DNA from: Candidatus Poribacteria bacterium
GTDB taxonomy: Bacteria > Poribacteria > WGA-4E > WGA-3G
NCBI GenBank assembly: GCA_963663765.2
Contig: CAXXUA010000005.1
Span: 1,312,001-1,376,000, forward strand
Length of the DNA: 64,000 bases
Reading direction: 5' to 3'
The translations under genes were made by a program, and so were the position numbers. Of this stretch, positions 27,416-30,980 are shown piece by piece. The stretch's first letter is position 1; every line of letters starts with the position of its first letter. The notes under the pieces were generated by a model that did not search any database, had not been told where the DNA came from, and saw only the letters and a list, made by a program, of their open reading frames with translations.

Positions 27416-27600
27416 GGTGTGTAAAGCTTTTTGCGTACAGAATCGCGGATTACGCGGATTATGCGGTTAAAATGTCCGCATGAGAATTTATCGCAGAGAA
27501 TAAGCGTTTTCTAAGCAACACGCTCAATTGCAGATGTATAATCCGTGTAATCCGTGTAATCCGTGATTCTGACAACACCATGCCAAGAACTTTACACACC
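27416..27600. mobile_element. MITE-like shell I (GGTGTGTAAAG...CTTTACACACC) enclosing inverted 9-bp repeat tracts
   Basis: CGCGGATTA repeats on the left and ATCCGTGTA repeats on the right; sister copy at 48261-48511. Confidence 0.75.
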
Positions 27601-27615
27601 CTCCCAAAATTTCTA

Positions 27616-27670
27616 TTGAAAAACAAAGATCAAATCTGTTATAATGTGCAAAAATTAGGACTTATTGCAC
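27616..27670 (+). promoter_or_regulatory. Promoter plus putative operator for the HTH-IrrE/MazF operon
   Basis: TTGAAA-18 nt-TATAAT (extended TG), immediately followed by the inverted repeat GTGCAA-N13-TTGCAC. Confidence 0.6.
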
Positions 27671-27695
27671 TCTACCCTTTCAAAAGGATTTTAGC

Positions 27696-28880
27696 ATGTT
27701 AGGTGAACGATTGAAAAGATTTAGAATCGCTCGTGGTATGTCTCTTGTTGACCTTGAAACTGCTATTGATCGTTTAGTTAGCAGCTCAACTTTGTCAAAA
27801 TATGAAAAGGGAACCTTACAACCATCAGCAAAGACACTTAATCAAATTGCTGCTGCACTCGGCATTAAGTCGGCACAATTGTGGGGTGAACCGCCTTGTG
27901 ATGTTGAACCGATTGCTTTCCGAATGCGTACTAAATTGGGTAAAAAGGAACAAGAACGAATAAAAGCTTTTGTAGCGGAAGAGGTCGAAAAACGGGTCTG
28001 GCTGCAGCAACAAATATCTGAACAGAACACGCTTGAACTTCCAATTTTGGGCATCTCAGTCCAAAACCTTGATGGTGCTGAAGAAGCCGCATATACCCTA
28101 CGAAACATACTGAACTTGGGAATTGACCCAATCGAAAACCTTATGGGTGTGCTTGAAGATCATGGTATTTACATTATTGTGGTCAATGCAAGCGAAAGTT
28201 TTGATGGTATTTCTTTTGTAGCACGAGATGAACACGATAATGTCATCGCAGCTGCGATCGCAATCCGTAGCGATGTTCCAGGTGACCGCCAACGCCTTAA
28301 CATCAGCCATGAACTTGGACATCTCATCTTAGATATAAACAAAAACCTTGATCCAGAAAAAGCCGCTTTTCGATTCGGTGCTGCTTTTCTTGCACCTGCT
28401 GAGCAGTTGCGTAAGGATGTTGGTCAAAATAGAAAACGTTTTGATAAAAAACAACTTTTCGACCTCAAAAATCGCTACGGTATGAGTATTCAAGCAATAC
28501 TCTATCGACTCAAAGATTTGGAGATTATTACTGACGCCTACTATAAGAAATGGTGTGTTGACATCAACAAATTGGGTTGGAAAAAGATCGAACCGATAGA
28601 CATATTGCCTGAAAAACCAGAGCGATTTTGCCAACAGGTCCAGCATGCCCTCTCCAATGGATTGATAACCGAAAAGGATGTAGAACGCCTCCTTAATCAA
28701 ACGGGACAGACAACTCCTGATAAGCCACTGAGCGAACGTCGTCAATTCTTAGCACTTCCAAAGAAAGAGAGACACCGTATCCTAAGCGAACAAGCAAAGG
28801 AGATGGCAAATTTCTACGAAAATGATAAAGAGTGGCAGGAATGGGAAGGAGGTCCCGTTGTTGAGCACCCTTATACATAA
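27696..28880 (+). CDS. XRE-HTH plus ImmA/IrrE-family metallopeptidase with a C-terminal extension
   Basis: LGERLKRFRIARGMS...LSKYEKG HTH; RQRLNISHELGH (HExxH), EKAAFRFGAAFLAP, YGMSIQAILYRL. Confidence 0.9.
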   Translation: MLGERLKRFRIARGMSLVDLETAIDRLVSSSTLSKYEKGTLQPSAKTLNQIAAALGIKSAQLWGEPPCDVEPIAFRMRTKLGKKEQERIKAFVAEEVEKRVWLQQQISEQNTLELPILGISVQNLDGAEEAAYTLRNILNLGIDPIENLMGVLEDHGIYIIVVNASESFDGISFVARDEHDNVIAAAIAIRSDVPGDRQRLNISHELGHLILDINKNLDPEKAAFRFGAAFLAPAEQLRKDVGQNRKRFDKKQLFDLKNRYGMSIQAILYRLKDLEIITDAYYKKWCVDINKLGWKKIEPIDILPEKPERFCQQVQHALSNGLITEKDVERLLNQTGQTTPDKPLSERRQFLALPKKERHRILSEQAKEMANFYENDKEWQEWEGGPVVEHPYT

Positions 28881-29223
28881 TCCAAGAAGGGGAGAAGTTT
28901 GGGATGTAGACTTCAGAGGATACATCGGGACAGAGATTCAAAAAACACGTCCTGCCGTGGTAGTAAATGTCAATAGTATTAAACATCTGAAAATAAGATT
29001 AATTGCTCCTATCACAAGTTGGAATGAAAAATATTCAATAAAAATTTGGTTCATAAACATTAAACCCAATGATTTCAATGGCTTGAGTTGGGAATCAGCA
29101 GTTGATACCATGCAAATCAAGGGAGCAGATGTTCAACGTTTTGTTGAAAAACGTGGTAAACTCACCGCAGCACAGATGGATGATATTACCGCAGCAATTG
29201 CAGCAATTATTGATTTTCAATAA
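28858..29223 (+). CDS. MazF/PemK-family endoribonuclease toxin
   Basis: RRGEVWDVDF, GTEIQKTRPAVVV, APITS, SAVD..QI..D..RF; GGAGG RBS at 28848 before a TTG start overlapping the upstream gene. Confidence 0.9.
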   Translation: MLSTLIHNPRRGEVWDVDFRGYIGTEIQKTRPAVVVNVNSIKHLKIRLIAPITSWNEKYSIKIWFINIKPNDFNGLSWESAVDTMQIKGADVQRFVEKRGKLTAAQMDDITAAIAAIIDFQ

Positions 29224-29384: not shown

Positions 29385-30980
29385 CTAAGTCCGATGTGAA
29401 GGTACTTCCTGTACCACAGGAATGACATAAGACCTTATAGTCACCTCATCTATCGTCTCTGTTTGGACGCGTGGTTCCGGTTCGGCACGATGATCAAAAA
29501 CGACGTAATATCCTTCGCGCACACGTTCTAATTGGAGATACGCGGACAGTTGTTTCTTACCTGCATCATAGAACCGTTCTCCCTCCCAAATCTTTGTTTC
29601 AACGATGTATTTATTACCACCGTGAACGATAATCATGTCCATCCTGCCACGTCCCGTTTGTGTTTCAAGGAACATTGCACCCCGAATCAGACTGACAAAC
29701 TGGTCAAGATAGGCGTATAAAAGGTCTTGACCAACAAATTCTTTCGGAGTTTCTGGTACTTGGAGTATCCGAAACCCTACGCGGGCAATGAAATTCTGGA
29801 AGTTGTCAAGAAGCAGTTCCATATTGATTTGCCCCGTCGGTGTGAGATAGTCCATAAAATCGGTGTCTTCAGGTAGGTAGTCCTGCTCAAGTCCATTTAT
29901 CTCAGGTTTGAATGCCTGTAGAATGCAGTACTGGTAAATTGGATTTACTATTTGACACATCCCATCCTGTGCTTTACCAATCACACCGAGTGTAGTCAGT
30001 TCACTGATGATGTCTCTGCGTGGGTTGAAGCGTACACCCCTTTCATAAGAAACGATTTGCATCAGGATTTGTTTAAAACGATGGTCTCTACGGATATTTG
30101 TCATCAGATGTGTGAGATTGGTGTTATCTTCTTCGCATATATCTATGTGTGCCCGTGAAAAGTGCGTCATCGTGATTGGTTCATTTTTCGGAATGTCCAT
30201 CTCTTCTGTGAGTATCTGAGCGAATCGGTTGACGAGGAAGGGTTGTCCAGCAGTCTGTCTGTGGATATTTTCAATTACGTCTGGATCAATAGTTTGACCA
30301 ACTTCATCTGTCCACTGTGTGAGTAATTCACGCACCTGATCCAAAGTGAAGTTCGACAATATGAATTCGTCCTGTATATTGAAAGGTGAAATAGAGCGGT
30401 CAAGATTAAGTTGTGTAATGCTTTTAACACCTACAATACTGACGCTGAAGGGACATTCACGCATAGAACGTTGGACATAGATAGTACGGAGTGCATGCAA
30501 GAAACCACTGACTGCATCACTGGGAATACCGTCAAATTCGTCTATGATTAGCACTAATTTCTCAATGTCAAGAAAACTGTCAAAATGTTGAAAGAATTCA
30601 AGCATTTTAGCGTGATCAGTTATTTTTGTGTTTTCCAAGAATTCGGTTAAATCTTCAGAAGGGACAGCACCACGTTTCTGAAAAACGCGATCTATCTGTT
30701 CATAAATTCTTTTATTAAGGGAGGTATAGAAATCGGACGCGCTAAAGTTGACATACATCTCAAAATTTAGTTCAATTGGGAAGTATGTTTCTGTCCGATC
30801 GGCTGTGAGTACATCAAGTGCCCATTGGAAGAATGTCGTTTTGCCTGTCTGTCGAGGGGCAAATATGACGATATAACGACCTTGCTTGACGCGGCTGATA
30901 AAATCATTGAGTTCTGTCTTACGTGAGACAACGTAATGATCTTCAGGATTCACGGGACCGTAGGTGCTGAATGTCTTCAT
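29385..30980 (-). CDS. AAA-like ATPase (AAA_35-type) fused to a C-terminal PD-(D/E)XK nuclease-like domain
   Basis: APRQTGKTT, LIIDEFD, SPFNI, TAGQPFLV; GRMDMII...IVETKIW. Confidence 0.8.
   Translation of the reverse strand: MKTFSTYGPVNPEDHYVVSRKTELNDFISRVKQGRYIVIFAPRQTGKTTFFQWALDVLTADRTETYFPIELNFEMYVNFSASDFYTSLNKRIYEQIDRVFQKRGAVPSEDLTEFLENTKITDHAKMLEFFQHFDSFLDIEKLVLIIDEFDGIPSDAVSGFLHALRTIYVQRSMRECPFSVSIVGVKSITQLNLDRSISPFNIQDEFILSNFTLDQVRELLTQWTDEVGQTIDPDVIENIHRQTAGQPFLVNRFAQILTEEMDIPKNEPITMTHFSRAHIDICEEDNTNLTHLMTNIRRDHRFKQILMQIVSYERGVRFNPRRDIISELTTLGVIGKAQDGMCQIVNPIYQYCILQAFKPEINGLEQDYLPEDTDFMDYLTPTGQINMELLLDNFQNFIARVGFRILQVPETPKEFVGQDLLYAYLDQFVSLIRGAMFLETQTGRGRMDMIIVHGGNKYIVETKIWEGERFYDAGKKQLSAYLQLERVREGYYVVFDHRAEPEPRVQTETIDEVTIRSYVIPVVQEVPSHRT

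Follow-up and report, generated by a model that had tools for sequence, protein, structure and literature searches.

How the antitoxins of the RosmerTA type, which combine an N-terminal XRE-type helix-turn-helix (HTH) with an M78 peptidase, hold their toxins is not settled. This question is raised by a two-gene locus in a 64,000-nt stretch of DNA, referred to below as the window (contig CAXXUA010000005.1, positions 1,312,001-1,376,000, assembly GCA_963663765.2; all coordinates below are window positions), from a Candidatus Poribacteria bacterium, a sponge symbiont. At this locus an RmrA-like antitoxin gene is followed directly by a gene for a MazF/PemK RNase, and the part of the antitoxin that is predicted to bind the toxin, a C-terminal tail of 50 residues, is separable from the peptidase body. 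It is quite probable, as a joint explanation, that the pair forms a two-gene type II toxin-antitoxin operon, in which the antitoxin of the MazF RNase would combine a toxin-specific tail, an autorepressing HTH and a peptidase acting as the trigger.

The C-terminal tail is a portable module

The antitoxin gene (27696-28880, + strand) encodes an RmrA-like protein of 394 aa, composed of the XRE-type HTH, the M78 peptidase, a helical domain, a linker and the tail (residues 345-394; 28728-28877, + strand), which is predicted to be the MazF-binding and neutralising part. An earlier note on this DNA, based on the letters alone, had claimed that the protein runs on beyond the usual end of its kind, and this is borne out: the RmrA and spr1629 family models cease aligning at residues 309-340, and the linker at 334-344 precedes separate helices, which AlphaFold2 places at residues 345-353, 356-375 and 379-383, followed by a disordered end. 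The RmrA models extend 34-52 positions past the aligned part, suggesting that such proteins usually bear some C-terminal extension, though not this one. The tail is conserved among the more than 120 close homologues of the antitoxin, which show 62-100% identity and are nearly all 389-396 aa long.

When residues 345-394 alone were used as the query against 1.84 billion representative proteins, a search that the earlier note had proposed, 155 proteins matched at E ≤ 1e-3, of which 8 also passed E ≤ 1e-10. Most of them are small (48-160 aa) and match at their extreme C-terminus, and a small number are cut copies of the 394-aa protein. The tail falls within no Pfam or NCBIfam family; four of the small tail proteins show faint matches to the NCBIfam MazE model NF050104 (E 0.014-0.15). 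A Pfam scan of 149 tail matches (E ≤ 1e-3) detected a domain in 24 and none in the other 125. The domains preceding the tail include HTH_3, DUF2283 (three proteins), PhdYefM (two), DUF2281 (four, plus one C-terminal), a FitA-like ribbon-helix-helix (RHH), HTH_17, AF2212-like, MazE/AbrB, DUF433, RelB-like, DUF6364 and BetR, with three of the 24 matches (P0217, P0237 and P0256) looking spurious; versions of the tail on AbrB and RHH scaffolds exist (P0197, P0171). In the course of evolution the tail has been attached to at least twelve other N-terminal domains, in all examined loci as a partner of this MazF subfamily.

The named tail-bearing proteins come from Chloroflexota and Microcoleus, and plasmid copies are found in Gloeothece and Chroococcidiopsis. 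The tail look-alikes from the Atlas are proteins of 65-66 aa, and these leads suggest that the module is probably also present in Planctomycetota and Acidobacteriota. Scans of viral contigs with the tail alignments A2 and A3 found no relative, and the tail profile matched no solved MazE among the PDB sequences; SATB1 CUT domains, which appeared in the same comparison (E 0.015-0.35), were dismissed as chance matches. A MazF antitoxin family with a strand-helix-helix arrangement, XF1863, is described from proteobacteria and Chlorobi in the accessible part of PMC2701414; it was weighed as the identity of the tail by this description only. The tail represents an unannotated and widespread antitoxin module of Poribacteria, Cyanobacteriota and Chloroflexota, whose members are currently annotated 'hypothetical'.

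A relic of the tail lies elsewhere in the genome of the window (L042 1501-1620; G000:C3:113367-113486), as a 46-aa open frame without a start codon (E 1.3e-6). It is followed by an unrelated 202-aa gene and is similar to the tails that small antitoxins bear in the Poribacteria loci L083 and L085.

The tail is linked to one MazF subfamily

Tail homologues lying apart from mazF would have spoken against the expected link of tail and toxin. Among 33 metagenome loci fetched with the tail-bearing alignment A3, a MazF with 34-51% identity to that of the window lies directly downstream in 29. As for the other four, three (L008, L017 and L023) end no more than 70 nt past the antitoxin stop, and L040 is a weak match (E 4e-6) of a different protein kind, so that MazF is found downstream in 29/29 informative loci. 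The HTH-M78-tail form, whole or cut by the contig end, accounts for 27 of the MazF-linked loci, and an 89-aa tail protein for the remaining two (L027 and L028). The mazF gene is broken or shortened in four of the 29 (L011, L018, L022 and L033). In L011 (531-2246), the first ~86 residues of MazF continue in frame into an ORF (open reading frame) of 571 aa, the remainder of which is unrelated to MazF, and this may be a deletion fusion.

The small carriers give the same picture. On a Gloeothece plasmid (L043), a DUF2283 domain joined to the tail directly precedes a mazF split by a frameshift; on a Chroococcidiopsis plasmid (L074), a 75-aa tail protein precedes a gene annotated as PemK/MazF, whose product is 44% identical to that of the window; and in the Poribacteria loci L083 and L085 small tail genes directly precede MazF. 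The tail proteins of L027, L028, L043, L074, L083 and L085 all lack the peptidase, and these six loci confirm the statement in the earlier note that tails of this kind also exist as separate small genes upstream of pemK.

A complex of the tail (alignment A2) with two copies of MazF (alignment A4) was predicted in three runs together with three controls. All three runs scored 0.85, as compared with 0.17 for the best of the three controls; in the calibration of the tool, 116/157 solved complexes and 2/215 mismatched pairs attained this mark. Contact agreement between runs was at least 86% and the partner pLDDT (predicted local distance difference test) at least 75. In the model, tail residues 2-45 (protein residues 346-389, including F351, L352, Y374, W380 and W383) touch both MazF copies, and the contacts of one copy include residues 29, 31, 51 and 53. 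The prediction of this complex, another of the earlier proposals, came out clear of its controls as a model.

Neutralisation very probably resides in the tail, since it is portable, is linked to MazF of the same subfamily and scores 0.85 in the predicted complex. The tail as a MazF-cognate antitoxin module is supported by its many unrelated small carriers, by the linkage in all informative loci and by the predicted complex, and the C-terminal cassette is accordingly a strongly supported candidate for the toxin-cognate part of a type II pair. A rule of this modular kind, in which a toxin and the C-terminus of its antitoxin form one evolutionary unit, is cited in the accessible part of PMC3879964.

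The body of the antitoxin

The XRE-type HTH occupies residues 6-59 (27711-27872, + strand; Pfam HTH_3, E 9.3e-11), and its PDB profile matches are SinR, DdrO, C proteins and CapH. The M78 (ImmA/IrrE) zinc-peptidase core spans residues 179-273 (28230-28514, + strand; Pfam PF06114 Peptidase_M78, E 1.9e-10) and includes the HELGH motif at residues 205-209 (28308-28322, + strand). H205, E206, H209 and E221, the last of which we take to be the third metal ligand, do not vary among 36 sequences with identities as low as 39%, and from this conservation the peptidase is most likely active. The AlphaFold2 model, built on 36 sequences, has a mean pLDDT of 85.4 and a predicted template modelling score (pTM) of 0.78 and is globular up to residue 333. 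The flexible linker that follows (residues 334-344; 28695-28727, + strand) is of low confidence (pLDDT below 50 at residues 336-341) and lacks secondary structure, and its sequence varies among homologues. The nearest solved folds found by Foldseek are IrrE (3dti, E 1.3e-4), PprI with single-stranded DNA (8sln) and CapP (7t5t).

Fourteen RmrA models of PADLOC, which carry no curated cut-off, match the antitoxin with E-values from 2.7e-42 to 1.8e-25, though over residues 3-340 only. The features of RmrA are present: an N-terminal XRE-HTH, an ImmA/M78 domain with HExxH, the profile match, and an adjacent toxin gene that forms a two-gene unit with the antitoxin. The toxin is not recognised as RmrT (no PADLOC match), which has little weight, since RmrT toxins are diverse by definition. 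The NCBIfam model NF052239 (spr1629/RipB) matches residues 2-331 with 115.9 bits, below its cut-off of 335, and by this comparison the antitoxin is a relative, not a member, of the spr1629/RipB family. The fusion of repressor, stress-activated peptidase and antitoxin that the earlier note had inferred thus stands insofar as one chain holds the HTH, the M78 domain and the tail, but it is not new, being already the RmrA of RosmerTA.

The same genome holds two more HTH and M78 proteins, of 397 and 420 aa (L078 955-2849 and L079 749-2502), each beside a DUF4411 PIN-like toxin. They align with each other from end to end, and with the protein of the window weakly and over its first ~140 residues only; both C-termini are unrelated to its tail.

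The MazF toxin and the layout of the operon

The toxin gene (28858-29223, + strand) encodes 121 aa from TTG 28858 and matches Pfam PemK_toxin (PF02452, E 4.8e-21). Its best PDB profile match is M. tuberculosis MazF9 (8.2e-14), followed by EndoA and Kid. R31 and T53, presumably equivalent to the catalytic Arg and Thr of E. coli MazF, are invariant in 21 sequences. A second MazF in the same genome has an unrelated 94-aa gene upstream.

A promoter-like site, a palindrome, the antitoxin ORF and mazF form one operon-like unit on the + strand. The candidate promoter is sigma-70-like by consensus match only (27616-27645, + strand): TTGAAA at 27616-27621 and TATAAT at 27640-27645 are separated by an 18-nt spacer, 11 of the 12 consensus positions are matched, and TG precedes the -10 hexamer. 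Both hexamers are kept in L001, L002, L005 and L006, where the -10 is TATACT; in L003 and L004 the DNA upstream has been rearranged and does not align. The exact palindrome GTGCAA-N13-TTGCAC (27646-27670, no strand assigned) lies directly 3' of the -10 and is a weak candidate for an operator; it occurs once in the window, as against 0.22 copies expected per 64 kb, and at least one copy appeared in 20 of 100 shuffles.

The 394-aa HTH and HExxH protein is, as had been claimed, the sole upstream partner of mazF (ORF 27696-28880), and the ORF list of the window contains nothing between the two genes. The mazF start, TTG 28858, was chosen by comparison with 20 homologues, an alternative in-frame start being ATG 28822. 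Since the antitoxin stop lies at 28878-28880, the toxin starts inside the last codons of the antitoxin, with an overlap of 23 nt, and the mazF ribosome-binding site GGAAGGAGG (28843-28851, + strand; 6 nt before the TTG) lies within the codons for the WEGG of the tail. The overlap of the tail end with the ribosome-binding site and start of the toxin gene, which had also been claimed, is therefore real.

Upstream of the promoter, two 9-bp tandem arrays, CGCGGATTA repeated 2.6 times (27444-27466) and TAATCCGTG repeated three times (27539-27565), are near reverse complements of each other and lie 72 nt apart. Convergent on mazF is a gene for a 531-aa protein (29385-30980, - strand) with an AAA_35 ATPase domain (E 2.4e-15), a weak NERD/PD-(D/E)XK-like C-terminus and only faint PADLOC matches. 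This gene adjoins the pair in L001, L006, L048 and L049 and is missing in L002, so that the spot between housekeeping genes is variable.

Evolution of the pair in Poribacteria

A contig scan with the whole protein found six close Poribacteria loci and one HTH-only match, and a search with protein P0123 gave matches in 68 of the 176 genomes of the phylum. The antitoxin frame is open while mazF is damaged in a series of these loci: mazF is truncated in L001/L071 and L066, frameshifted in L004, startless in L003/L072, and absent in L005, L063 and L069. An open antitoxin with a decayed toxin is the pattern typical of toxin-antitoxin pairs.

In 16 genomes of one genus (L044-L059), a 137-aa form with an open frame (67-79% identity to P0123) is found, in which roughly residues 72-325, i.e., the peptidase body, are missing and the HTH is joined to the linker and tail; this form probably stems from one ancestral event. 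None of the 16 loci has mazF beside it, although L048 keeps a 41-residue remnant. In L048 and L049 it still adjoins a homologue of the AAA_35 gene. Three of five such genomes checked hold a MazF of the same subfamily elsewhere, accompanied by a small tail antitoxin in the two loci examined (L083 and L085). An argument from the 137-aa form that the peptidase is dispensable for neutralisation was dropped, because no such locus keeps mazF.

L065 and L067 are broken copies with TGA stops. In genomes of genus g15, including L068 and L070, the open frame of the antitoxin measures 517-530 aa as compared with ~400; in L070 the surplus precedes the aligned start, and mazF is read in a different frame. 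An N-terminal extension is possible in these frames.

Proposed mechanism and its rivals

In the proposed operon, the tail would wrap over the MazF dimer including the region of the active site, as the predicted complex suggests, and hold the RNase inactive, and the HTH would most likely repress the promoter of its own operon. The peptidase, most likely active, would serve as the trigger: when cued, for instance by single-stranded DNA or a product of a phage, it might cut the antitoxin, in the same or the partner chain, the tail would be lost, and MazF would be freed. This cut on cue is speculative and is drawn by analogy with ImmA, IrrE/PprI and CapP; the evidence for protease gating consists of the invariant H205, E206, H209 and E221 and the fold resembling those of IrrE, PprI and CapP.

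Several observations weigh against this account. The cut site, the cue and self-cleavage rest on analogy. The absence of any PADLOC match for MazF means that this library gives no support to a role in defence. The score of the predicted complex may have been aided by remembered MazE-MazF complexes of the PDB, though the tail profile finds no solved MazE. The arms of the palindrome, which had been taken to cover the transcription start, are not conserved in the orthologous promoters of L001, L002, L005 and L006 despite a nearly identical HTH and conserved hexamers, which makes the palindrome doubtful as an operator; its exact sequence and its place after the -10 stand, and its proposed role is weakened. 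The HTH and tail are kept without a neighbouring mazF in the 16 genomes of one genus, so the tail may serve beyond the adjacent toxin, and this retention counts against the tail having no other use. Finally, the correlation of identity with that of MazF over 15 loci (r 0.86 for the HTH, 0.89 for the peptidase body and 0.89 for the tail) does not single out the tail, and it is uninformative because all parts of the antitoxin share one history.

A stricter version of the trigger would be a single-chain switch, in which DNA damage or phage activates the M78 domain and one cut in the linker or at the junction of HTH and peptidase derepresses the operon and frees MazF at once. The disordered linker of 11 residues before the tail would suit such a cut, the catalytic motif is invariant as described above, the nearest folds are IrrE, PprI (solved with single-stranded DNA) and CapP, and cleavage of the HTH has been suggested for Rosmer-like antitoxins in the accessible part of PMC10440598. 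In addition, every loss of the M78 domain (all 16 short forms) goes together with loss of mazF, but these forms belong to one genus and likely to one event. However, neither a cleavage site nor a cue nor a product is known, and the small antitoxins with the same tail have no peptidase, so that the basic toxin-antitoxin function does not depend on gating; for the pneumococcal RipB, ClpX rather than self-cleavage is implicated in the part of 10.1101/2025.09.02.673660 that could be consulted. Such a switch is possible, with the balance tilted somewhat against it.

Neutralisation might instead be assigned to the peptidase and helical body, by binding or degrading MazF, with the tail left for dimerisation or DNA binding. 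NetFlax, as far as its accessible part goes, takes the ImmA-type node as an antitoxin domain as a whole, and the tail is kept in the 16 loci without mazF; yet the tail is the sole feature common to all tail proteins beside this MazF subfamily, their N-terminal domains differ, the peptidase is absent in the six loci of the small carriers, and the model lays the tail across the MazF dimer and its active-site residues, all of which make this assignment very improbable. It is also improbable, though less so, that the pair is a decaying or domesticated remnant, in which MazF is inactive and the large protein is only a transcription factor. Decay of mazF is common among close relatives, a startless tail relic lies elsewhere in the genome, and the MazF of Poribacteria departs from the family consensus (e.g., RGYIGTE for DPTxGAE and WFI for WHV). 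In the window, by contrast, both frames are intact, the ribosome-binding site of mazF is strong and R31 and T53 are kept, and the clade-specific changes in MazF are shared with L002 and L006 at 86-87% identity, which points to selection.

Returning to the operon with a toxin-specific tail, one may ask whether its plan extends to RmrA proteins in general, with a constant HTH and M78 sensor body and, at the C-terminus, an interchangeable cassette for gripping the toxin. In this scheme, a peptidase cued by single-stranded DNA or phage would cut the linker or tail of its own or the partner chain, and orphan HTH-tail proteins would act as trans antidotes against paralogous MazF. This generalisation is tentative and rather unlikely as a whole; if it is true, a single protein would unite the roles of repressor, sensor, antitoxin and executioner of that antitoxin.

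Comparison with known systems

The RmrA-like architecture and the MazF toxin are each well known, and no description of their pairing, or of the shared tail cassette, was found in the literature. Proteins with an HTH and an ImmA/COG2856 domain are antitoxins of varied toxins, and regulation by cleavage of the HTH part has been suggested for them without proof, according to the accessible parts of three sources (PMC10440598; 10.1101/2022.05.11.491447; PMC2701414). PemK/MazF was not found in the part of the PMC10440598 supplement searched, and a D25-MazF pair may still stand in NetFlax.

The pair is nearest to RosmerTA (RmrA/RmrT) and to the ImmA-type hub D25 of NetFlax, which share, in the accessible parts of their descriptions, the N-terminal XRE-HTH and M78 domain and an adjacent toxin of varied kind. 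It differs from RosmerTA in that the toxin is a MazF/PemK RNase without a PADLOC match, and in that the last 50 residues lie outside the RmrA models and are shared with small MazF antitoxins. The single RosmerTA complex tried with AlphaFold was not predictable (pDockQ 0.05), as stated in the accessible part of PMC10440598. The occurrence of the same 50-residue cassette alone and on other scaffolds separates the neutralising part from the sensing body. The fused COG2856-HTH proteins of Makarova et al. 2009 (PMC2701414) show the same architecture beside toxins, and the accessible part of that paper names PIN and RelE, not MazF, as their partners; the DUF4411 pairs of the present genome have this architecture with a different C-terminus. 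RipAB (spr1630/spr1629) of S. pneumoniae resembles the pair in its Rosmer-family antitoxin with an HTH and an ImmA-like domain, but the proposed target of the RipA toxin is the sliding clamp instead of RNA, and the gene order and C-terminus differ, as far as the accessible parts of its descriptions go.

With MazEF, PemIK and Kis-Kid the pair shares the PemK-fold toxin, the upstream antitoxin gene overlapping the toxin start, and an acidic, Trp-bearing C-terminus of the antitoxin that is predicted to lie over the toxin dimer. Unlike in these systems, the DNA-binding domain is an XRE-HTH and not an AbrB or RHH domain, ~270 residues of peptidase and helical domain separate it from the tail, and no similarity of the tail sequence to solved MazE chains is detectable. 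ImmR/ImmA, DdrO/IrrE (PprI) and CapH/CapP have the same peptidase fold and the same kind of HTH and are the source of the gating analogy. In those systems repressor and peptidase are two proteins, and what results is the derepression of genes, whereas in the antitoxin of the window both reside in one chain, and the output under control would be the bound toxin.

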